Shown piece after piece: positions 10,730 through 25,798 of a stretch of 27,366 nucleotides of DNA (position 1 is its first letter; every line of letters begins with the position of its first letter). This DNA comes from Kondoa subrosea (lineage: Eukaryota). The translations under genes were made by a program, and so were the position numbers. The stretch covers positions 3,909,136-3,936,501 of the forward strand of contig BCIN01000001.1 in the NCBI GenBank assembly GCA_039545335.1, read 5' to 3'. Under the pieces are notes generated by a model. The model saw only the letters and a program-made list of their open reading frames with translations, was not told where the DNA came from and did no database searches.

Positions 10730-11290
10730 CAATGTTCAACACGTCTCCTCGTGCAGGCCGCCTCTGGTCATTATTGCTCTACGCTCTATGGATATTAAAA
10801 CCACGTGATTGTGTCGTCCTTCTGTCTTGGGCTGTCGATTTGCTGGCTTGAAGGGGACGAACGCTTGAACTTGTCAAGGCTCAATTCTCCGTGTTATGGA
10901 AAAGGGAATACAGATTTCGAATCATCACAGGCAGGGTCTAATTGGAGCTTGCACCCAAAGTACAAGTTATCTTCAAGCAACTGTCCACCTGTGGTAATTC
11001 GAAATTGTTTCAAGGTTATGAGGCAGAGCAAATCAAGCGGCTCCAAAGATGGGTCGAGGAAGAAACAGGAGAGGAAAAGTTGAGGCTTTTATGGCTGCAA
11101 ATCTGTCAAGCAAAACATGAAATGCGACTGGTCAAATGGCTGAACAAGCGTTTCCAGCTGACCAATGTACGATAGTCGCGACGAAGCTACTCGTCTTGGC
11201 TACAGACAATCATGAATAGGTATTCAGCAAGTGCACAGATCTGAAACTTGCGCGTATTTACATCCTGATTACGCGATAGATTCGATGCCA
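10730..11290 (+). repeat. Diverged direct repeat copy C (partner C' at ~14750-15295)
   Basis: 10931-10993 vs 14941-15003 match 54/63 ungapped. Collinear flanking anchors: GAACGCTTGA, AAGGCTC, CAAGCAAAACA, AAATGGCTGA, CTGACCA. Outer boundaries are approximate. Confidence 0.75.
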
Positions 11291-11890: not shown

Positions 11891-14457
11891 ATGCTATCAT
11901 CATGCCGTGTAGCCAACAGAGGCAAGCTAGCCCATTTCTACGCGCATTGACTTTTCGCTTATTTTTGGCTTGACTACAGCTCTACTGCCTTCCTCTCGGA
12001 CTCCATACTCTCGGTCTCTTACCATATCAGCATATCGATTGGCTCAACTTCCTGCAGCTCCTCCTTCTACTGAAACTGTGAACGAAAAAGCAATTCCAGC
12101 AGCTGCACCAGTCTATACGAATAGCCCAGCACAAGGTCCACCTCATGTCGCTTCTTCTTCGTATTCTGGTCTTCCTCCTCCACCACCACCTCCAAAGAAA
12201 GGTAGAAGCAAAGCGAGGAAATGGGTTGTTCGATTTGCAAGAACCACACTCTTTGTCGTGCTCGGTACTACTACTTATGTCGTTTATCGATCTTATCAAA
12301 CAAGACATCCGCCAACTCAGCTACCAAGAGATCCAACCGTGAGGCTGAAAGTCTTCCATCGACATGCCTGTTTGCTTATGTGACCGCTTTTTGACCTTTG
12401 CAGAAAAAGAACCTTGTAGTCCTTGGTAACGGTTGGGCTGCATCGAGTTTCTTGAAAGGAATCGATACGACGGATTACAATGTGACCGTCATTTCACCTC
12501 GAAACTACTTCTTATTGTATGTTTTGCCCCTTCAATATCTGTGCAACTGATCCTCATCATGTGCATTAGTACACCTCTGCTACCTTCAGTCACAGTAGGA
12601 ACAATCGAATCTCGATCTATTCTCGAACCAACTCGATTCATTACCCGTCACAAAACTCGAGCAGTAGAAGTTTTTGAAGGAGAAGCGGAATCTGTTGATC
12701 CTATACAAAAAACAGTTACTTTTACTGATGCGAATGAGAAAGAAGTTGATGTGAAGACTACTACTATTCCTTATGATGAACTGGTATACACTGTTGGTGT
12801 GTTCTTTCGTTCAAGAGTTCAACAACAACATAGCTTACATTGTGCTATCAGGTGCCGAGAACAATACATTTGGCATTCCTGGAGTAAAAGAACATGCTTG
12901 TTTCTTAAAAGAAGTCTGGGATGCTGAAAGAGTGCGAAAGAAGTTGATGTGAGCTTGACCATTATGGCTTCAGTTTAGTATCTGATTCCATTGTGTTTGG
13001 CTTACAGGGACTGTATTGAAACTGCTACATTCAAGGATCAGACTGAAAGCGAAATTGACCGCTTACTCCATATGGTTGTCGTAAGTCCTCACCCTCTTAT
13101 ATCTTTAGCTATCTAAGCAGTCCGATAGGTCGGTGGAGGTCCTACGGGAGTTGAATATGCCGCCGAGCTACACGTAAGGTTCATACTCTGGTCGCTGGGA
13201 CTCACATCTGACTTGACTGTAACAGGATTTTCTTAAGGAAGACTTGCAGAACTGGTACCCTGAGATCGCTGGTCGAATCAGGATCAGTCTAGTAGAAGCT
13301 CTGCCCTCAGTCTTGCCAATGTTCTCGAAAGTGAGTTACAGTCCTTCATCCTTGAAGCTTGATCGAAACTGATCTTCATGCATTAGCAACTCATGTCAGT
13401 ATTTTAGGACAATATGTGAGAACATCATATACTGAGCCGCATATGACAGCGATTATACCATGTCTACCATGCAGGAAAATCATATCGATATCAAGACACG
13501 AACTATGGTAAAGAAAGTAGAGGAGAAGAAGATCATTGCTCTTGATGCCAACAAGAACGAACTTGAGATTCCTTATGGGCTTCTTGTGAGTCAGTCAAAG
13601 GATTACTTGGCTACGACTGATCTCCAATCCAGGTCTGGGCTACCGGAAACACTGCTCGTGGTGTATGTTCAAGTACATTTGATCAATGATAGCAACCAAT
13701 TGTATTATATAGATCACGAAGAACCTCATGAACGCTCTTGGTGAACCTCAAAAGGGTAAACGCGGTCTAGCAGTCGATGAGCACATGCGAGTACAAGGCG
13801 CTGACGGTATTTGGGCACTTGGAGACTGCACGCAAACTCCCTATGCACCTACTGCTCAAGCTGCCTCACAACAAGGACAATATTTGGCTCGCACTTTCAA
13901 TCAAATGTCGAAGAAGGAAAGAATCGAAGCTGCTTTAGCTGATGCTAAGAGTGCGCATGAGTCCGAAAAAGTGGAGAAGCTGCAGAGGGAACTAGAGAAG
14001 GGTGTGTCACCACTTTCTAACAGACTGGAACTTTGCCGATTTAACTTTGCCGATTTATTGTCAACAGCATCTCGACTACCCGCATTTGCCTATACACATC
14101 AGGGAAGTTTGGCTTACATTGGAAGTGAAAAGGTAGGCTTCCACCTTTTGCTGTCAACAAAGCGATAGCTGATTTCTCGCTATAGGCGATAGCTGATATT
14201 CCGTTCTTTGGTAACGGTAACATCGCTAGTGGTGGTCTAGCGACAATGTCAGTAATCTCCGTATGGTTGAAGTGATTGCTGACTAGTCTTGCAGGATCTT
14301 CTGGCGATCCGCTTATATCTCTACTCTCTTTTCGTTACGTAACAGAACGCTGGTACTGCTTGACTGGACGAAGACTCGTATTTTGGGTGAGTCAATTTGT
14401 ACTCCAACTCATGAATGTTCTAACCACCATGCAGGTCGAGATGTGTCAAGAAGCTGA
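11891..14457 (+). CDS. NDE1: Mitochondrial alternative (type II) NADH:ubiquinone oxidoreductase, external NDE-type, many introns
   Basis: Presequence plus a TM segment. FAD motif VVLGNGWAA...[19 protein letters not shown](H) motif [15 protein letters not shown]. Also [54 protein letters not shown]. Ends GRDVSRS*. The paralog assignment (NDE1 vs NDE2/NDI1) is tentative. Confidence 0.9.
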
Positions 14458-14749
14458 GGTCAATCGATATGTAAATAGCTATAGAGATTGGTATTAGAGT
14501 AAACCGAGTTATGCATTCAATTGCCCAAATAGCTTACAAGATCGTGATGCGAAAGAATGATTAAATAGCGTGAGAATATATATTATTCTATTGTCCATGG
14601 AGAGAAGTTGTAGAGAACAGCAGTATCATCGTGTCTACTGACCAGGAATGTTCAGAGACAGTCATTGAGACAGAACAAGATTGGAGCATTTAGACTTGAA
14701 GCCCTTGAACGTCTGGTGTGCTGATGTATTTGCACACCCACACACCCAT

Positions 14750-15295
14750 TGACAATGTCCAATCAATATCGTTCGTTTATCAATGTGTCACATTTCCCTT
14801 GAGGCTATGGACTTCTTAAGCTCACCTCGAGTGCTAGGAGGTCCATCTAGCACCTGATAAGTCAAGGGAGAACGCTTGACACAAAGTAAGGCTCGATACC
14901 CATGGTATAATAGAAAGAACACAAACCACAAGCGATACAAGCAGGGTCTAATCGGAGCAGACACCCAAGGTGAAAGTTATCTCCAATCAACTGTCCACCT
15001 GTGTACTCGCAGCTGCTTCAAGAGGAGGCAATCGAGATGATGAACAAGAAGAAGAAGAGAAAGAAGAGGAAAGCAGGGTTTTGTTGCTGACCCTCCACCA
15101 AGCAAAACAAGCACAAACACATGTTGAAGGGGTCCAAAAAAATGGCTGATTGTGCGTTCCTGCCTGACCAGCACGCGACAGAGCTAAACTAAGCGACACC
15201 TACCATATAGGGAAGGTACAAGTACCCATGCAGGACCATAATTACGCGTTTCGCGCGATTTGCATAACTGTTCCGCACTGGGCCGTTCGATTTGG
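14750..15295 (+). repeat. Diverged direct repeat copy C'
   Basis: Partner of 10730-11290, offset ~4010. Includes a GAA-rich tract at ~15040-15072. All frames checked are interrupted by stops. Confidence 0.75.
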
Positions 15296-15679
15296 GAAAG
15301 GGCAAGAAAGGAGTAGAAAGCTGAAACATAGAGCATATAACAGTGCGATAGAGCAGGAGCAGCGCGAGCAAAGAGAATGTATTACAGTATTGCACAGCAG
15401 TTCGAAGAATCCAATATTCAGTATTGAGAGTAGTAGATCTTCCAGAAATACCCTGTTGAGCTGGGATCAGTGCAAATCAGTGGGGTGTCGACTTCGCATT
15501 AGCCACGCTAGCCTGTGCCCAATTCCTTGCAGCAGAATGAGAAGTTTGTCCGCGAGTCACGAATCTCGCACAGCTTTCGGCAAAGGCAGCGCATCGCATC
15601 TAGATCTTTTCTTTCAGTCCTTCAATTTCAGGCATGTGTGTTCAGGCATTTGTTGCCAGTAATTGCGTGACATCCAGTT

Positions 15680-15922
15680 ATCGTTTAAAAACAAAGCATC
15701 GATTGTTTGCATCGCATCTCTAGCTTCTCTGCTGTCCTGCTTGAAGATTCTCTTGTGCCTGCGTGTGCTTTCATCCGGAGCGATGCATTTTCACTGCCTT
15801 TCTTATCTATGTATTGCTTTCATTGCATTGATGCGTTTGGGATCTTTGCCTTCCCCTGCTTCGACCTGTTCAACAGTGTCAGGGAATGTTTCCCTCGTAT
15901 TTGCTAAAAACTAGTGAAGCTC
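15680..15922 (+). repeat. Direct repeat copy A (upstream region plus first 12 codons of the SET gene)
   Basis: Aligns to 19008-19248. 15812-15861 vs 19138-19187 match 49/50, and the alignment continues ungapped (offset 3326) to AGTGAAGCTC. Confidence 0.9.
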
Positions 15923-18730
15923 AACCTGGAACACATTTACAAACGCCAATTGCATACGCGAGTCGAAACATCATCAGCAATCCGCTCACACACAACGCCA
16001 ATGAATTACGACCTGGAAGAGATGAGATAGCTCATGTCGTCGCTACTATTGGGGTGGACGCAGATCTTGGTGCGCTCCAAGTTGATTTGATCGAATACGC
16101 TTGGAGCTATTGGGCGCCCGGAGGATCTGCTACAGCAGACGATGTGAGTGCTCAGCTTTGCTACAGTGGAAAACTGATCGTGAGCTGCTTACAGTACTTC
16201 TCGATGCAGCCTAAAGCAATCATAGGCAAGACAACAGGCGGCAAAGGTCTCTTTTCGGCTATGGCAATCCGAGAAGACGATTTGATCGTGCAAGAGATGC
16301 CAATACTTACAGTAACGGCTGCTATCACTGAAGGTAATCTGCAGAAGCTGTTCGAGTGCGTTTCTCGTCTTGCGAATACTAGCAAACTGATGATTATTTA
16401 GTCTACTACCTTCAGAAGCACGTAAAGCGATCAATGAGATGCCAATCAATCCCAAGGACGATACAAATAGCGACCCATCAACGGCAAAAAGAGTGTCATC
16501 TGTGATTAGGGTGGGTCGGACCTGTTCTTGCTCAATGCTTCCACTCACACATCGAGCAGAACAATGGTTTTATCATCGAATTAGCACCTTTCGGTACGGC
16601 GGTTACCTGCCTGTATCCATGTCTGGCTCGAACGAGTAAGCCATTTTTTGCGTGACCGCAAGCGAATCTAATGATCGCTTAGCCCACTCATGTTCACCTA
16701 ATATGGAAGTTCAGATGGATGGAGTCATTCTGAAGCTTGTAGCAACACGCTCGACCAAACCTTATAGTGAGTAGTAACAATTTGGTATCGGTCCATCTGA
16801 TGCTGATGGCTTCTCGGCAGAGCGCTTACACTTCGCTCAAATTGATCCATTACTCACTTGGGAGTCACGCAATGCTGAGCACCTGCGAATCCATGGCAGA
16901 CCATGTCAGTAGCACCCAATCCAAATTTTTGCATTGCTGACGAGTTCATAGGCGGCTGCGGACCCTGTACAGAACAGAGATACGACTCATACGCACCTAG
17001 TGATCAAAGAAGGATCTTCATAGCCAATGAGCTGGCTGAATTGGCAGCTGCCGGGAAAGCAACCAATTTCGATATGGCTCGGATCAAGAATTTGCAGGTA
17101 TGCTAAACTGAATACTGTAACAGATGCAGATAGCTCACGGTCTTTTAGTGGTGCATGACGGCAGAGAATGTTGGCATGAGTCAGCAGGCTCGATGTCACT
17201 CTGATATACATCTAATGAGAGCTACAGGAAGAGGAGATGTGAAGGCTAGAATCAAAGTCTTGGAAGAGCAGGAAAAGAAACTCAAAGCAGTCGCGTGAGC
17301 AGAACATCCCTTGTTCAAGTATTTATCTGACATGCTTTCATAGGTCACCAGCGAGTCAAGCCAGACCTGCAGCAGCACCTTGTACGATATACTGCTTCGT
17401 GCTGCTCTTTCATGTTCATTCGATGACTACAGAATCTTTTATTCAACCAATCATACCAGCATATCCAATTCAACACAGACCTGTTATGCCTATGTCCACT
17501 CATCCTCCTCCTTTACCTCGTCCTCAACCGGCTCTTTCAACAGCTCAGCCAATCTCTCAAGCTGCTATCATAATCATACCTTCTGCACCTAAACAGCCCG
17601 ATCCGGCTCGACCAGCGAAGCCGAAAGAAGCAGAGAATAACGAATCTCCACGAAGGCAGGAAGAGATACAGGAAGCGGTGAAAAGCATGCTGGACCTGTT
17701 TGCTGCGGATTACAAAGAAGCGTTAGAGGAAGAGCAGCTGAGCGAAAACAAGCGTTTCACAGCATTATCCAGGAGCAGACGAAGATCAAAATCGAGGTCT
17801 CCTGGTAAACCTTCTCTACACTCAATTCTTCGAAATCCGTATGATCCGTTAGAACTAGAAGCGGCTAGACAAAGAGATCCGCTGGAGATGGAAGAATTGC
17901 AACAGCTGGAAGATGAGAAAGAAAGGTTGAGATTGATGGAAGCAGAAAGGCAACGACAAGAGCTACAAGATAGATCATCCCGAATACTGGTAGATGATGA
18001 GAGACCTCTTTTACAACTTGCTCTGGATGCTCCGTCGAGAGAAGAACCTTTGCGAACTCAGCTCTTGATCGAAGAAAAGCCTTGCAGCACTTTCAACTCT
18101 CCGCTGGTTGTTTACAGCGCACTGGAAGATCCCGACATGCCTTCAGCATATCTTCACTACCAGAGCTTGCCTATTGAACAAGCTTTTGCACATCGCCATG
18201 ACTATGCTTCTCCTGGTACGTATGTAGCTTTGCTGCATTCTGATGCCGATCAAGAGCTTGCTGTTCTGCCCCTCTCACTACCTCCATCTGTATCTTTGCT
18301 GGACGATGCTTTCCCGCTTCCAGCATTGGCATCAGCTTGCGAAGCCGACAACAAGACAAGGGACAAGATGGTCAACAGTTACTCAGTCGTACCCTTTCGT
18401 AATCGCAATGCCCGTCCTTTCAATCACTCAATACCTCGAACTTGGCCAGAAGACAATCATCATTTTCACTTTGACCTTCCGCGCCTCTGTGACGAGACTG
18501 AGCAACTCGATAATTCGCATGATTTTGTCCTCCCATTCTTGAATGTCGAAAGCCAGCAGATCGGTATTCAGCAGGAGGAAGCTTTACCGCACATCTTGCC
18601 GTCTTCTTTTTCTTTCAGCGAAGAAACGCACTGCTTCTCTACTACTTACACCACGGAAGAGTCCGGTCAGCTGGTGATGCATAATGAAGGTTTGGTAGCC
18701 CTGCATGATTTGATGCACCTACGTGATTGA
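15886..18730 (+). CDS. SMYD/Set5-like SET-domain protein with degenerate catalytic motifs and a long Pro/Glu-rich C-terminal tail (~816 aa, 9 exons)
   Basis: Exons 15886-16143, 16195-16355, 16402-16510, 16560-16635, 16683-16766, 16821-16904, 16952-17097, 17149-17294, 17344-18730 are all phase-consistent GT-AG. Motifs: GKGLFSAMAIREDDLIVQEMP, IRNNGF, LYPCLARTTHSCSPN, ATRSTKPYKRLHFAQID, post-SET CGCGPC, SDQRR. The last exon is the 443-aa ORF of the track. Confidence 0.75.
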
Positions 18731-18978
18731 CATCAACAGCTTGATATCTGCTAAGTGTGGACGTTTGAATAGTATCAGGACAGTTGTAGCAATGTAATAG
18801 TCTTGAAATGCTATCATTTAAAGTACTTCGTCGCGCTTACACCTCACCTCAATATTCAATTTGCGCTTGTTTCGTTCTGCAACGTCCAAACTTTGTACTC
18901 CTTTGGTCACTGTCGCTGGTCGACGAATCTCTCATAGCGATCCCAGTCACCTTGAAGCGCTATTCTGCTCAGCTGCAG
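18654..18978 (+). repeat. Direct repeat copy B (last codons of the SET gene plus downstream region)
   Basis: Ungapped match to 21052-21376 with 9 mismatches in 325 nt. 18749-18942 is identical. Weaker similarity extends left to ~18623/21019. Confidence 0.97.
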
Positions 18979-19007
18979 TAGCTCCATTGCTAAGATTGCT
19001 TGCCATG

Positions 19008-19248
19008 ATCGTTTCAGAACAAGGCTTTTGTTGGCTTACATCTCGAGCTTCGCTGCTGCCCCTTTTGTAGCTTGTCTAGTACCTGCGTACGCTCCCATCC
19101 GGAGCGATGCATCTCACCGCCTTTCTTACCTATAGTATATTGCTTTCATCGCATTGATGCGTTTGGGATCTTTGCCTTCCCCTGCTTTAACCTATTCGAC
19201 AATGTTCAGAAATGTTTCTGTCGCATCTGCTAAAGACCAGTGAAGCTC
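19008..19248 (+). repeat. Direct repeat copy A'
   Basis: Partner of 15680-15922. The ATG at 19212 aligns with the SET-gene ATG at 15886 (MFLSHLLKTSEA vs MFPSYLLKTSEA). Confidence 0.9.
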
Positions 19249-19493
19249 CTAGCCCAAAAAAAATTTGAAGCGTTGCGTTTTCTTCAGCCTGCCTCAAGCA
19301 CCCGCCTGGCTGTTATCAAGACATCGCTGCGCAGGTCAGGAACCTTGCTGTTGTGCAAGCAGCGCTGCTGCTGCTCAAAGACCATTGTTGTTTCACAGCC
19401 TCCGAATAAATATGAAAATCTCGTTCTTCCTCGCTCTTCTCCCATCATTGATCTCTTTGCTCTAGCAAATCATTCAGTAGCACGGTAGTCAAG

Positions 19494-21012
19494 ATGGACA
19501 GCAATTACTTTTCAAACGCCGCAGTCTTGACGCAAGCGAATCGGTAATCTTGATCGGAAATTCATGGCGTAGCTGATTCTTTCGCCTATCCAGCTCCCTT
19601 CCAGCCAATATTGCAAGCGGTAGTACCGAACAGGCTCTTATCTCTGGTCAGCATGCTGCGTGAGCTCTTTCTGCGAGATGGTTGATCCCCTTTGTTTGAA
19701 AACCGCTCACTGCACTTTCTAATACAGCGCAAGTCGATCTTTACATGACCTGCAGGGTCGAGTCAAATGAGCTGCGGCATAAGTCAGGCAGCATCATGTC
19801 CAGACGACCAATGTTCAGCCTCGTTATCTGGTTGGTTGTTTCGGCGTGTACCGATTGAGGCTGAAGCTCTTTCTTAAGAGATGGCTTATTACGTTCCGCA
19901 GCAAGGTCGCGCGGGAGGGAAAGAATAATTTCATGGACTACCGCATTTGCGTTCCCAAGCCGCTCAGCCAGTCAAGCGCGGCAGAACATCAAACAGCCAA
20001 TACGTTGCTCGCACTGTCCGGTTTCTGGGGCTCGCCTATTCAATTTTGGACACAAGCTGATGTCTGGAACGATCCACTGCATCGAGCATTGGTGAATACG
20101 CCTTACACCATGCCTTCGTTTCCCACTTTCTCCTTATACAGTAAGCTGCTAATACGAAGTGCTGCTTTGTCATCTGTATTTCGGCCTACTACTACATTCT
20201 ATATTGTCGACCACGACAAGATTCCCTTCGTGTTGTTAGATGCGGTCAAGGACAACAAATCCACGATTCGTCAGTCTGCATCTGCTGCAGGTCAAGCGAG
20301 CTGTAGTCTGCCTCCGGGATATTCGAAAGACCTGCTTGATCTTGCGGCAATGTTTGCCTCCGAAAGAACTGTGAGTCTATGTCAACTTAAGCTTGGACAG
20401 CTCTCTGAATCTGACAGAAGCGCATGGCGTCCCGTGTCTTTGACATTGTACTCATACCCATGACGACTGTCGAACCTGTTGGTCATTGTTCTCTGCTCGT
20501 AATCTACCCCAAACTCAATACTTGGGTCCACCTTGATACGTGCACGGCATTGCATGGCTTGACGTCTGAAGATGTGAGTGCTCGTCTGCTTCTGGGAACA
20601 CAGCTGACTGTCGGGTCTAGACACAACGCATGACGTTTTTGCTCTAATACATTTGTCGAGCTATGGGTTTGTCAACATCCAGATCTGCTCTCATGAAGCA
20701 GACTATCAATAGAGTGCATCTTTAACAGTTTCGAGTCCTTAGATGTTAATTGCTGATCACGCGCGTCAACAGAGTTTACCAACCAGAAGCTATCAATACG
20801 ATTGCTTAGTTTTTACCCTAGCAAGCATGAAGTGGCTCATCTACAGTCCACCGAATCCATCAGGTGATATACCTCTGACACCTAAAGATGGACCAGCCCT
20901 ACGAAGAGGCATGACGGCTGAACTCATGGCTGGAGCAATCGCTGGCAGTCGTACCTTGAAGGCCGAAGAGTCGGTCTACGAGGACTTCAAGCGCGTCAAC
21001 AAGCAGCTCTAA
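19494..21012 (+). pseudogene. Ulp1/SENP-like (peptidase C48) gene with three in-frame stops
   Basis: The spliced model gives FDIVLIPMTTVEPVGHCSLLVIYPKLNTWVHLDT and LPTRSYQYDCLVFTL, the His/Asp/Cys triad in C48 order. Phase-consistent GT-AG introns at 19544-19593, 19660-19727, 20371-20417, 20574-20620, 20714-20772. In-frame TGA at 19768, TAA at 19780, TAA at 20645. Confidence 0.65.
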
Positions 21013-21051
21013 GACTTTGAAACGCAATATTTTTCTACCACTACAGTTTAG

Positions 21052-21376
21052 CGGAAGAGTCCGGTCAGCTGGTGGTGCATAACGAAGGTTTGGTAGCTCT
21101 GCATGACTTGATGCACCTACGTGATTGACATCAACAGCTTGATATATGCTAAGTGTGGACGTTTGAATAGTATCAGGACAGTTGTAGCAATGTAATAGTC
21201 TTGAAATGCTATCATTTAAAGTACTTCGTCGCGCTTACACCTCACCTCAATATTCAATTTGCGCTTGTTTCGTTCTGCAACGTCCAAACTTTGTACTCCT
21301 TTGGTCACTGTCGCTGGTCGACGAATCTCTCATAGCGATCAAAATCACCTTGAAGCGCTATTCTGATCAGCTGCAG
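21052..21376 (+). repeat. Direct repeat copy B' (overlaps the presumed CNB1 promoter)
   Basis: Partner of 18654-18978. Ends 51 nt before the CNB1 ATG. Confidence 0.97.
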
Positions 21377-21427
21377 CTTGTCAACTTGGGTCATATCAAT
21401 CCTCTCTCTTAGTAGAACTCTTTCATC

Positions 21428-22369
21428 ATGGGTCAGGTAGGCTGACGTGCTATACTGCTTGCTTTCAAGTTCAAGTCGGTGCCATTCTACAGGGAGGCAG
21501 TCAACTGCTTCAGGAAATGGAGAACAACTCCAATTGTTCGCTCTCTCAATCATGTCATGTCAAAGATTCTCGTATGAGCTCACGTGTACTATGCTATGCT
21601 GTGCAGTCTCTGGACCTGAAATACAACGATTGAGAAGAAGATTCATGAAACTAGACAGGGATGGATCAGGTTCGATAGACAAGGACGAGTTTTTGCAAAT
21701 ACCTCAGATTGCCAATAACCCTTTGGCTTCTCGAATGATTGCAATCTTTGATGAAGAGTCAGTTGCAACAGCGTGCTCTCTTATGCTGATTGTCAGCTTA
21801 CCGGGGACTTCGTAATGACAGCGGTGGTGGAACAGTCGATTTTCAGGAATTCGTACAGGGTTTGAGCGCGTTCAGTAATAAGGGAGAAAGGGAGGAGAAG
21901 CTCAAGTGTGCGTATGCATACTGAAGGATCAGAGTCATCTAATGCTTAGGGACTTGTTGCGCACAGTCGCTTTCAAAGTATACGATATGGATCGGGATGG
22001 GTTCATATCTAATGGAGAACTGTTCATTGTACTCAAGATGATGGTGGGAAATAATCTGAAGGTTCGCTTGTTACATTGAGTCCACTTTCGAGTGGTTCAA
22101 CATGCCAACATGCTGCGAACAGGATCAGCAATTACAGCAAATCGTGGATAAGACAATCATGGAAGCAGATCTAGACGGGTATGTCCACATTGTTACGTCT
22201 TTCTGCCTACCGCTTACGTATTGCTTACAGCGATGGCAAGCTGAATTTCGACGAGTTCAAAGCAATGGTAGCGAATACGGTAGGCTTGCCTGGACCGCTC
22301 AGAATAGCTCTGATGTGTCTCTCGGTGGACTCACAGGATATCGCGCGGCAAATGACGCTAGAGTTTTGA
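21428..22369 (+). CDS. CNB1: Calcineurin regulatory subunit B, 7 introns
   Basis: Myristoylation-type start MGQGGS. Spliced sequence: [62 protein letters not shown]...[58 protein letters not shown]...QMTLEF*. Four EF-hands. Confidence 0.97.
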
Positions 22370-22565
22370 ACAAAGCAAAAAATAATCGCTCGCCTTACAC
22401 TTATACAGTACATACCCGCTGCATTAATATGAATCCTGTTGCAAGATCTGGCTCCTTGTGCAAAGTCGTTTGTCGTATTCTGCTTTATACATTCAGGCTC
22501 GGTTCTTTACACTTTTTGCACTCATATACATTTCTACATCTTTTCTACGGTTTTACGCAACGCAT

Positions 22566-23194
22566 CTAGGCTTTGAACATGAACTCCTTCAGCGGCTTCC
22601 AGCTCGTATCTTGCTGATACTCCCATGCAGCTATTCCCAAACCTTTAGCGACTGGCATCTCTTTCTTCAATTCTTCCATCTTGCTCTGCATTTGCTCAAA
22701 CACCTCTTTCGCTCGTGCTTCTTTTTCTTTGTTGCACACAGTAACATGTACGCCTCTCATTTCCCTACCCGCAAACAAATCAGCTTCCTTCCTCTACAAG
22801 TCATTGGTGCGACGAATAGAGCGTACCTCGAATCTTGCTCTGTCAATTCTATCCTCGCTTGATAGAAAGCATCCAATAACCAAGAATGTACTTCTTTCGC
22901 TTTGAAGCTCTTGAAATTCAATGCAACCCCAGACCCATTCTTGAACATGAATGGATCTCCCAACCCTAGATTGAATGGTTTAACAGTACTGATAGTCTTT
23001 TCGATCAGAGGAAACAATTGATCTGAAGGAGGTAAAGCGTGAAAGTAGGTGATATGGGCGTGAAGTACATTTCGATGCGAAGGGAAATAAGCAGAGCGTA
23101 AAGAAGTTAAAGTGGATTCTGATTGTTTGTCCAGGATTAAGGAGAGGACGATAGGTCTTGCTCCTACTCGCATATCTTTCGGTTGTTGCTGCAT
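22566..23194 (-). CDS. 2H phosphoesterase (2'-5' RNA ligase-like superfamily), one intron at 22765-22826
   Basis: Two HxT motifs (LHAHITYFHALP and GVHVTVCNK) about 80 aa apart, preceded by IVLSLILDKQSESTLTSLRSAYFPSHRN. Confidence 0.8.
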
Positions 23195-23337: not shown

Positions 23338-25394
23338 ATGCCCTGGTCTTTAAAATTTTCGAGTTTGCAAAGCAAAAGTCTGATACATCGAATTGCTCGT
23401 CTTTGTCTCTCTTGCTTCCTGTTTTGCACTTTGGCGACTTATGTGATCATTACGGCTCCTTTGGTGTATTTCTTTAATGGGTTAGAGGGAGTGCTGAGAT
23501 TGGTCAAAAGGCGGTTGCTTGGACATGATGCTGAATCTCGTTCGCTGAAGAGAAGGAACAAAAAGGTTTCACAGACGAGCAGTAGGACGGCTCTGGGCAA
23601 TGCGTGAGTCAATTTTGGCATACAACGAGAGGGAGCGTGCTGAATCAATTGGTTTCAGCTTGCCTGTCAAAGCAAAGCACGACCCGACTGGAGGCAATAC
23701 TCAGCCCGAGCAAGATCCTATTGTGTCAAGTACTATAAATTCGGCCAAAGGCGATGATCCGCTCGAAGAAAATGACCTGTAGGTTCGGCTTAGAGAAATG
23801 CAACTACTTTTGCTCATGAGTTTGTCCTCTACAGGCTGCAAAAACCTTCTCAAGATATTCCACGTGCACCTAGCGGCAACAAGGATGTTTCGTCTGAAGT
23901 TCAACTTGCTGTGCCTGCGCCCAATTTCAACAGCGAAGCAGTACCTCTATCTTCGACTGCCGAGTACGCGCAGGATCTACCTACTTTTCAATCTGCGGAT
24001 GAACCTGGGCTCGTCACAACTTCTACTGACGTTGCGTTCGTAGGGAAAGATGTGCTCTCAAGGTGAGTTTAGGTCTGCTTCGGCTTTCTGTTTAGCTGAA
24101 CGCAAGCCGAAAATCATAGCTTGCCAGAAGCTAGCCAAGACTGTACCTGTGCCGATGTTGCTCCAAACACACTAGCCCCGGTCGAAGCGTCTTTGTCTGC
24201 TCTGTCAATTGATGAAGTCAAAGAAAATCAAGACATGGAGCTTTCAAGTTCTATACCTGCTAAGCAAGCTGAAGTAGCGACTAGAGACGTGCATGAAGAG
24301 CAGATAGCTGAAAAGCCTGGTGGTGAATCTAGGTGTGCGAATTGTACTCAGATGTGACATTTTGCTCACATTGAGAGATAGCTCGTTCGCAGCTGAAGCT
24401 GAAACTCTGGCGAATCCGGAACATCGAGGTGACGAGTCTGCTGCTGCAGCTACTCCGCCTGCTAGTCCCAAAATGTAAGAGGACGTTCAAATTTCAGCTC
24501 AAGTTGATAGTTTGAGTTATCCTTGCTTACAGATCCTCATCGTCACCTGCTCACAGTCGCTATTCTTCCGTCGGCTCATCAGTACCCAGCACTCTCTTCG
24601 ATTACCCAGTTCGCTTTCCGTTGTCACATGCCGACTTGGACCATACCTCGCCAACGCTTACTCTAGTCGATCCGGAAGAATCGCAAGACTTCTCCAAGGA
24701 GTACAATTCACATCAAGCTGCTGGTTTAGGATTGTCGCTTGAGAGTACTGATAAATTATCTACCGGGCGACCATCTGCTCCATCGCCAATTCCCTACAAC
24801 GCGAATTACACTTCTATTTCATCTACCTTCGATCAGTCTTTCGACACTAGTCTACCAACCGAAGTCTCTTTCGATGCAAGTCCATTGATACAGTCACGCC
24901 ATGTCGACTTCACTCCTGTCGATTCGATTGCTCTAGTAGCTCCCTCCATCGTTCCGGCTACAAGGCATATGGTGCGCAAAGCACCTGCATCAAAGAGTCG
25001 GGCAAGTCGGATTCCAGTGTCTACAAGTACAGCTACGCCAATTCCTTTCGCTACTTTTCCTCTGCGAAGACAATCTTCACCCATAATCAATCCTGTAACA
25101 CCGGCAAGATTCCCAACCCACGCTCGAACTTCTTCATCCGGCTCACAAGCTTCTATCTCGCCTCGGATTAGAGCGATTTCTGAAAGGCCGAGCGGAAGTC
25201 GAGCGCTGTCTTTCTCCAAACCAGTCAACTCTACACCTCCTTTTCCTCGCACCGGTTCTATTTCTCCCACACTCTCACGTAGAACAGCTAGAGATACACC
25301 GATGTTTCGTTCCAGAACCGAATCTATGCCTATTCTCGCTCGATTGCCAAAGAAGCAAGAACCAGCATCCTCAACGACCATTACATCAACATAA
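23338..25394 (+). CDS. Hypothetical protein with an N-terminal hydrophobic segment and a long Ser/Pro/Thr-rich disordered region (6 exons)
   Basis: Hydrophobic stretch LCLSCFLFCTLATYVIITAPLVYFF. Five GT-AG introns join the track ORFs at 23338, 23600, 24121 and 24621 in one frame to the TAA ending at 25394. Confidence 0.7.
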
Positions 25395-25798
25395 ATATCC
25401 CAACAAGCAAGATTTTCGATTTCATCACCTGTATCACTATGCCTGTACATATCATAGACAACATTTATGCATTGCCGATTCAGGTTTTGGGTTCTCGTGA
25501 GTCTATGATCTGTTGTCTTACTTTCTTCTGCCTTTGTGTGTCTTATTTCTCATCTCGATCCGTTCTACTTCCTTCCGCATCCGTCAAATTCCATTGCTGT
25601 GGACTTCGGTCAATTACCTACGCAGCAAAGGGCCAAAGTGATGCGAATATCAAGCTACTTATGTTTTCCTTCGGGTTACATCTGTCGTTCATCTTAACGC
25701 CCTTTTGATCTTTGCTGATGTTCAAGCTAAGATTAGGGCTGGTAGTTTCGTACATACTTCTTTACTCATACAAATGCAATTCGAATTACAAATTATGA

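Follow-up and report, generated by a model that had tools for sequence, protein, structure and literature searches.

The stretch studied here, called the window below, comprises 27,366 nucleotides (nt) of contig BCIN01000001.1 of Kondoa subrosea (assembly GCA_039545335.1, positions 3,909,136 to 3,936,501 of the forward strand); positions are counted from its first letter. Two units lie in it head to tail. Unit 1 (15680-18978) contains a SET-domain gene, and unit 2 (19008-21376) contains a spliced gene that resembles C48 (Ulp1-like) cysteine peptidases. The units have the same ends but different cargo. Does this arrangement represent a cassette in which protein-modifier genes are swapped between conserved ends, or the "shell" of a duplicated gene with a replaced interior? 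Both readings were offered by an earlier examination of the letters alone, referred to here as the sequence-only reading.

The answer preferred here, with a confidence a little above even, is a non-mobile rearrangement that arose once, in a chromosome of basidiomycete (Pucciniomycotina-like) type. It would consist of a tandem duplication, the replacement of the interior of one copy, and a later gene conversion between the copies.

Shared ends, unlike interiors and copy number

The two units are in the same orientation, and the gap between them (18979-19007), put at about 30 nt by the sequence-only reading, measures 29 nt. That reading had proposed a comparison of the window with itself. By BLASTN this recovered both end repeats, and together with a repeat search it confirmed the two tandem units and their common ends. 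The left ends (15680-15922 and 19008-19248; A and A' below) are 79.7% identical over 246 columns (E = 1e-54). The right ends (18623-18978 and 21019-21376; B and B') are 94.2% identical over 359 columns (E = 1e-156). The repeat search showed an ungapped core of 300 nt with 97% identity in the right ends (18654-18953 and 21052-21351), and two ungapped cores in the left ends, one of 111 nt with 86% (15812-15922 and 19138-19248) and the other of 74 nt with 80% (15715-15788 and 19039-19112). The shared length is 243 nt for the left end and 325-359 nt for the right end, with 94-97% identity in the latter, both depending on the alignment used. In pairwise alignments of the left ends and of the right ends, the boundaries are sharp on all four sides.

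Between the interiors (15923-18622 and 19249-21018), no similarity was detected, in agreement with the sequence-only reading; the best E-value was 0.28 with BLASTN and 1.4 with TBLASTX. Interior 2 is not similar to the rest of the window either (best TBLASTX E-value 0.067). For the 29-nt filler between the units there is no template in the window, where the longest word in common elsewhere is at most 10 nt. The G+C content of the window is 0.43-0.49 and does not jump at unit 2. The common boundaries, the order, the orientation and a copy number of two are those of a tandem segmental duplication. The paralogous interiors expected of a simple tandem segmental duplication are absent.

The copy number comes from two public sequencing runs (X1 and X2). 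They derive from one sample and one study and are possibly the source of the assembly, hence not independent of it. Both runs contain 99% of the sampled words of the window. Contigs derived from the reads (6171 and 9166 in the two pools) were matched to the locus at a threshold of 80% likeness, and seven of seven contigs in each run were at least 99% alike to the window. They span 15400-15854, 15832-18739, 18710-18942, 18913-19180, 19151-19187, 19158-21137 and 21311-21700. A, the SET gene and B are bridged by the contig 15832-18739, B, the filler and A' by 18913-19180, and A', the C48-like gene and B' by 19158-21137.

In X1, the depth is 134 and 136.8 in the interiors, 132.2 at the junction, and 144.5 and 139.9 in the flanks. 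It rises about twofold, to 266.5 and 249.3, in the shared cores, which are 233 nt of B/B' (18710-18942) and 37 nt of A/A'. The pattern recurs in X2, where interiors, junction and flanks are at 52.5-56.4 and the shared cores at 111.7 and 97.1, and the junction contig 18913-19180 has single depth in both runs. As only the shared cores have double depth, there are two copies in this genome, not more. Equal depth in the interiors, junction and flanks shows that the assembler has not chained two alleles. Because B and B' are nearly identical in the reads themselves, polishing did not create their likeness. No further copy of A, B or either interior at least 80% alike was found among the read-derived contigs of the two runs. 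A cassette family with many copies in this genome is disfavoured by the copy number that depth gives. "Same ends, different cargo" is insufficient to call a cassette, and read-depth copy number decided the question for this genome.

One letter in this region is ambiguous. B has C at 18748 and B' has A at 21146, while a single 233-nt contig at about double depth spans the site with one letter only. Either a single-base bubble was popped in the contig assembly, or one letter of the window is wrong.

The alignments confirmed that the first 12 and the last ~25 SET codons lie within the shared ends. In the left end, the start codon of SET is at 15886 and its copy at 19212, and 12 codons align. In unit 2, the frame opened by this start runs 18 codons and then meets TGA (19266-19268). 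The unit 2 copy of the last 25 SET codons (21051-21128) has an in-frame TGA 10 codons upstream and no start codon. In unit 1, the same ends are in frame with an open SET model of 811 amino acids. Judged from these frames, the ends of unit 2 are dead relics of a SET copy, and unit 1 is the parent. The left breakpoint of unit 2 is closely followed by a run of eight A (19256-19263), directly after which the relic SET frame meets its stop; the other two frames stay open there for 66-82 codons.

The two pairs of ends differ in divergence. A and A' are identical at 196 of 248 positions (79%). Between B and B', identity is 22/34 at the left edge, 73/77 in the 25 codons, 211/213 in the next 213 nt, and 32/35 at the right edge. 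With 54/69 (78%), the pooled edges cannot be told from A in divergence (Fisher p = 0.87), unlike the core (18654-18943), where 6 of 290 nt differ (~98% identity; p = 3e-13 against A). Edges as diverged as A around a near-identical core indicate an old duplication (~21% diverged) with later gene conversion. Structured RNA does not explain the identity of B and B', because Rfam gave no match at E ≤ 1 on 15000-22000 and the B core folds no better than shuffled sequences (z = -0.54 and -1.00). No tRNA was found in the window.

A and A' also share a 50-nt block with 49 identical positions at 15812-15861, which places it 25-75 nt before the SET ATG. It consists of identical runs of 12 nt (15812-15823) and 37 nt (15825-15861) with one mismatch between them. 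By our own arithmetic, the chance of a perfect 37-nt run at 79% identity is ~0.01. The block may be a conserved promoter or 5' untranslated region (5'UTR) element, or a small conversion tract.

A proposed rearranged duplication and its rivals

The history would be as follows. A 3.3-kb segment (15680-18978), comprising the whole SET gene, 206 nt before it and 248 nt after it, would have been duplicated head to tail by illegitimate recombination, leaving the 29-nt filler at the junction. In the downstream copy, the 2.7 kb that start at SET codon 13 and end ~35 codons short of the stop would have given way to 1.77 kb of unrelated DNA carrying a compact, divergent C48-like peptidase gene. This may have happened in the same complex event or in a later break repair. 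What survived would be a "shell": the promoter and 5'UTR region together with a start that is dead after 18 codons on one side, and the last 25 codons with the 3' region on the other. Much later, gene conversion of the right ends would have homogenised ~230-290 nt, as the identity pattern suggests. The head-to-tail copies, the two common boundaries and the near-identical 18710-18942 inside ~21% diverged homology resemble known cases of tandem duplication with gene conversion. The locus differs from them in its unrelated interiors, and in that no more of the parent than 243 nt and about 357 nt is left in unit 2.

The stop codon of the C48-like gene lies 6 nt ahead of B', and it is thus likely that this gene uses the SET-type flanks. 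It would be transcribed from A', perhaps also from the copy of the CNB1-upstream region in B, and B' would serve as its terminator. B' would double as the region directly upstream of CNB1, the next gene.

Several points weigh against this history. Replacement and gene conversion are two extra events beyond duplication, and neither was directly observed. The reading is drawn from this genome alone. The order of the units rests on the assembly; the identical core of 233 nt exceeds the word length of the assembler, and the contigs permit a 2.4-kb circle. There is no donor for the 1.77-kb segment, as no other contig is at least 80% alike, no protein homologue was found, and metagenomes were blank. 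The match of the C48-like gene to Pfam PF02902 (Peptidase_C48) is below threshold (E = 0.12, 12.6 bits versus 20.7), and PDB sequence searches with its three exons returned nothing relevant. Among the relic codons, synonymous changes show a slight excess (three of five changed codons in A', three of five in B'). The excess may point to translation of the ends for a time, in the past or still today, something that the proposed history does not need.

Signs of mobility were sought at the locus. There are no inverted repeats of at least 30 nt in 14000-23000. Only scattered repeat pairs of 13-23 nt, a size expected by chance, were observed, none of them at the unit ends, and there are no flanking direct repeats or target-site duplication. 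Pfam matches to a transposase, recombinase or reverse transcriptase were found neither in the 72 open reading frames (ORFs) within 15400-21600 nor in the 21 long ORFs. No such match was found either in 69 of the 76 ORFs of at least 75 amino acids outside 15400-21600, the other seven being among the 21 long ORFs. This agrees with the sequence-only reading, in which no transposase or recombinase was visible in the window. Of the features of terminal inverted repeat (TIR) transposons and Pack-type elements, inverted repeats and target duplication are lacking, and so, judged by read depth, are several copies with the same ends. Helitrons start with TC, end with CTRR and a subterminal hairpin, and insert between A and T. 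Both units start with TCG directly after an A (A/TCG) and end with CTGCAG, the next base being T for unit 1 and C for unit 2. Their 3' end is thus GCAG instead of CTRR, and neither 3' end showed a hairpin nearby, except for a palindrome spanning the end of unit 2.

A family of mobile cassettes that exchange their cargo between conserved ends, whether pack-type, Helitron-like or recombination-driven, is accordingly very improbable. It would account for the same ends around different cargo, the head-to-tail order and the Helitron-like 5' ends. Helitrons are also similar to the locus in that conserved ends enclose variable captured cargo, and in their head-to-tail arrays; the 3' end, the missing hairpin and the mere two copies set the locus apart from them. 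The remark of the sequence-only reading that Ulp1-like peptidases recur in DNA transposons is borne out in print, and such passengers would suit a cassette. Passages of PMC2836005, PMC13317346 and PMC3212892 describe Ulp1/C48 domains in Mutator-like elements (ULP1/Kaonashi genes), Ginger1 and oomycete Cryptons. The locus is like these transposons in having a divergent C48 gene beside fragments of a host gene, and no close relatives of the peptidase are detectable, which suits a fast-evolving copy other than the housekeeping gene. It is unlike them in that the peptidase gene is single-copy, TIRs, target duplication and transposase are absent, and the host fragments are collinear with their parent and abut it. 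A transposon origin of the cargo is plausible, yet there is no sign of mobility at the locus. It counts against the cassette that its "ends" are the two ends of the neighbouring gene in the order and orientation of that gene, that depth gives two copies with none further at the threshold used in either contig pool, that TIRs, target duplications, CTRR and hairpin are missing, and that the 27 kb show no transposase. Of the two readings offered at the start, the duplicated shell with a replaced interior fits all tests, while the cassette does not hold for this genome with its two copies. Just as remote is an exchange locus driven by recombination, in which A (promoter side) and B (terminator side) would be working arms that swap protein-modifier genes. 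The B/B' tract and the 49/50 block of A/A' would then be maintained by exchange, and other strains would carry other cargo or a lone A'-C48-like gene-B'; this form of the idea has the same faint probability.

The other alternatives invoke known kinds of rearrangement or an error. Fork stalling and template switching (FoSTeS) and microhomology-mediated break-induced replication (MMBIR) are forms of replicative template switching. A single event of this kind could have taken a fork through B, back to 15680, along A, to a distant peptidase template, and home to 18623. The several sharp breakpoints (four here), the short filler without a template in the window, and foreign DNA inside a duplication are all typical of such events, and an inserted segment ending 6 nt past the peptidase stop and a copy number of two also suit it. 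The two ends differ in apparent age, however; a single event would make A' and B' equally old, and with A at 79% and the B core at ~98% a later conversion would still be needed. This route is considered unlikely. The strong difference in identity between the ends (79% versus 94-97%) could instead reflect two independent partial duplications, an old one placing A' upstream of a resident peptidase gene and a much younger one placing B' downstream of it. The order, orientation and abutment are those of one tandem unit, though, with B ending 29 nt before A', and the edges of B are as diverged as A, so that an old B' with a converted core fits better; only a small probability is given to this explanation. 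Common flanks, including gene ends, around unrelated interiors also characterise mating-type idiomorphs and HML/MAT/HMR of yeast, and in some homothallic fungi alleles at MAT are fused in tandem. By analogy, unequal and illegitimate exchange might have put two idiomorph-like alleles, A-SET-B and A'-C48-like gene-B', in tandem, and the 21% divergence of A' could be allelic. Unlike in those systems, no mating-type genes were seen at the locus, its copies are adjacent and not allelic or silent, and nothing points to switching. Since the two ends of unit 2 represent dead SET coding sequence, a replacement inside the SET gene would be required even then; depth puts both units on every chromosome copy, and the stretch was found in one sample only. 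Allele fusion is quite improbable. The least probable explanation is an assembly artefact, either chained haplotypes or a small circular molecule wrongly inserted. The identical 233-nt core, across which the contigs do not order the units, and the possible use of the same runs for the assembly speak for it. Chained haplotypes predict interiors of half depth and no junction contig, whereas equal depth (132-145 in X1 and about 48-56 in X2 for the unique pieces) and a bridging contig were observed, and a free circle at exactly the chromosomal copy number would be a coincidence.

The rearranged duplication is therefore retained as the preferred history; it is probably a one-off built from known processes. 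If true, it would be a clean natural case of a gene without detectable relatives installed in a ready-made regulatory "shell", made of the promoter side and the terminator side of a duplicated neighbour. It would also illustrate how gene conversion can lend one end of an old duplication a young appearance and mislead identity-based dating. The interest is local and concerns how genes arise and genomes change in a basidiomycete lineage that is poorly sampled, and no new class of mobile element is implied. Within the literature library searched, no paper combined a SET domain, Ulp1 and tandem duplication in fungi, and PMC12730594 does not mention Ulp1, C48 or SUMO.

The two genes

The features of the locus are listed in the table.

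Table. Features of the two units and their gene models, in window coordinates.
Feature	Position	Strand	Description
A, left end of unit 1	15680..15922	+	206 nt upstream of SET ATG and first 12 SET codons (15886-15921)
Interior 1, SET gene body, missing in unit 2	15923..18622	+	2700 nt
B, right end of unit 1	18623..18978	+	last 25 SET codons and stop (18653-18730), then 248 nt downstream
Junction filler between B and A'	18979..19007		29 nt
A', left end of unit 2, diverged copy of A	19008..19248	+	relic start codon 19212
Interior 2, unrelated DNA with C48-like gene	19249..21018	+	1770 nt
B', right end of unit 2	21019..21376	+	relic of last 25 SET codons (21051-21128) and downstream DNA
SET-domain gene model	15886..18730	+	9 exons, 811 amino acids, no internal stop
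C48-like peptidase gene model	19933..21012	+	exons 19933-20370, 20418-20573, 20743-21012; 287 amino acids
Possible upstream exons of C48-like gene	19494..19932	+	ATG 19494; introns 19544-19593, 19660-19727

The sequence-only reading had named the cargo as a SET gene and a spliced C48 gene. Open models support this for both, as do ordered motifs for SET and matches in ESM Atlas for C48; both Pfam matches are below threshold, and the identities are less firm to that extent. For both genes, these Pfam scores are for single exons.

In the splice model of the SET gene, five of the eight introns had a single frame-preserving GT..AG choice, and the other three had 2-6 choices. The stop codon is at 18728-18730. 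With exons from other parts of the window that have Pfam support as the training set, coding potential is highest in the frame of the model. The SET signature runs in the order GxG, N-F, (N)HSCxPN and a Cys-rich post-SET. The 811-residue model has GKGLF at 102, NGF at 173, HSCSPN at 198 and GCGPC at 254, in this order; by eye, the residue preceding HSCSPN is T, not N. The Pfam SET family (PF00856) was matched below threshold (E = 0.19, 12.6 bits versus 22.4) by a 28-residue exon piece (16685-16768) of a domain that is spread over at least five short exons. The last exon (17344-18730) encodes a tail of 461 amino acids, which appears to be lineage-specific judging from the searches. Against 1.84 billion protein representatives, the tail had one match (E = 5.7e-4), to a protein with INV_N and FAM186 domains and no SET, which was rejected as spurious. 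In metagenome scans with the tail, none of 155 pattern matches was confirmed.

The C48-like model is open throughout, and both of its introns (20371-20417 and 20574-20742) have the form GTGAGT..YAG. All three exons score best in the frame of the model, with 0.06-0.14 per codon versus 0.12-0.23 for host exons. PF02902 is the only family matched by the 52-residue middle exon (at positions 84-120 of the Pfam model), and Pfam gave no match for the other two exons. In ESM Atlas, the first match of the middle exon has a score of 0.95, which shuffled proteins reach about once in 100 as stated by the tool. It shares 186 of 256 features and belongs to a cluster with PF02902 on 98% of its members. Twenty-eight of 30 matches fall within the PF02902 set. 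Putative His169, Asp186 (+17) and Cys219 (+33) stand in the order of clan CE; the His-Asp spacing is 17 in yeast Ulp1, and the Asp-Cys spacing is shorter here than in Ulp1. The residue six before the putative Cys219 is, by eye, Arg, where the oxyanion Gln is expected. The open model, the coding score and the PF02902 and Atlas matches together point to a real C48-like gene as the cargo of unit 2.

Homologues of exon 1 (query 19783-20460) were not found, either among 730 candidates of 124-396 amino acids at E ≤ 1e-3 or among 3152 candidates of 397-2000 amino acids at E ≤ 1. In metagenome scans with this exon, none of 321 pattern matches was confirmed. The PDB searches gave 0, 3 and 0 matches by exon, the three being chance matches to unrelated proteins (E = 0.66-4.9). 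As exon 1 has no homologues and the PDB searches are blank, the gene appears from its sequence to be a divergent C48-like gene, not a conserved housekeeping Ulp1/Ulp2. Atlas matches of exon 1 to bacterial acyltransferase clusters (0.92) were rejected, as the 108 of 256 shared features are at chance level. An AlphaFold2 model of exon 1 alone without alignment had a mean predicted local distance difference test score of 38.6 and was discarded.

The possible upstream exons are in frame with the main ORF, but the frame is interrupted by TGA (19768-19770) and TAA (19780-19782), and 19783-19932 is not coding-like. Because of these stops between the ATG at 19494 and the main ORF, the N-terminus of the C48-like gene is uncertain. 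The second intron (20574-20742) is 169 nt long, versus 44-67 nt in the other modelled introns, and its 3' part keeps the frame of exon 3 with two stops only. A degraded exon inside this intron may account for the short distance from Asp to Cys. The third-position G+C is 0.49-0.54 in the C48-like exons, 0.36-0.49 in most host training exons, and 0.41 in SET exon 9. The higher value in the C48-like exons may be a mild hint of a different origin or of relaxed selection.

Neighbouring genes and lineage

B' ends 52 nt before the start codon of calcineurin B (CNB1; 21429), with EF-hand Pfam matches at 21441-21812. Among the long ORFs, Pfam recognised Sec8, an NDUFAF7-type methyltransferase, a GTPase and an NADH-dehydrogenase-type oxidoreductase upstream of the units, and a 2'-5' RNA ligase-like protein downstream. 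The ATG-started ORFs of the region gave no Pfam family in seven of seven cases. A Sec8 exon matched 40 proteins at E ≤ 1e-5, the best of them from Microbotryomycetes with 40-48% identity over 40-55% of the query. As these matches are only distant, the own proteome and close relatives are absent from the protein libraries searched. For any gene that evolves quickly, the lack of a homologue is therefore weak evidence here.

Two minor features lie outside the units. The third match in the comparison of the window with itself is a direct repeat (10927-10993 and 14937-15003; 85% over 67 nt), which is unrelated to the units. It lies near GAA-rich simple repeats (15042-15073) and is probably low-complexity sequence. 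Two ORFs without a Pfam match, 24516-25391 (+, 292 amino acids) and 24836-25549 (-, 238 amino acids), overlap on opposite strands, and both are coding-like (0.225 and 0.226 per codon).

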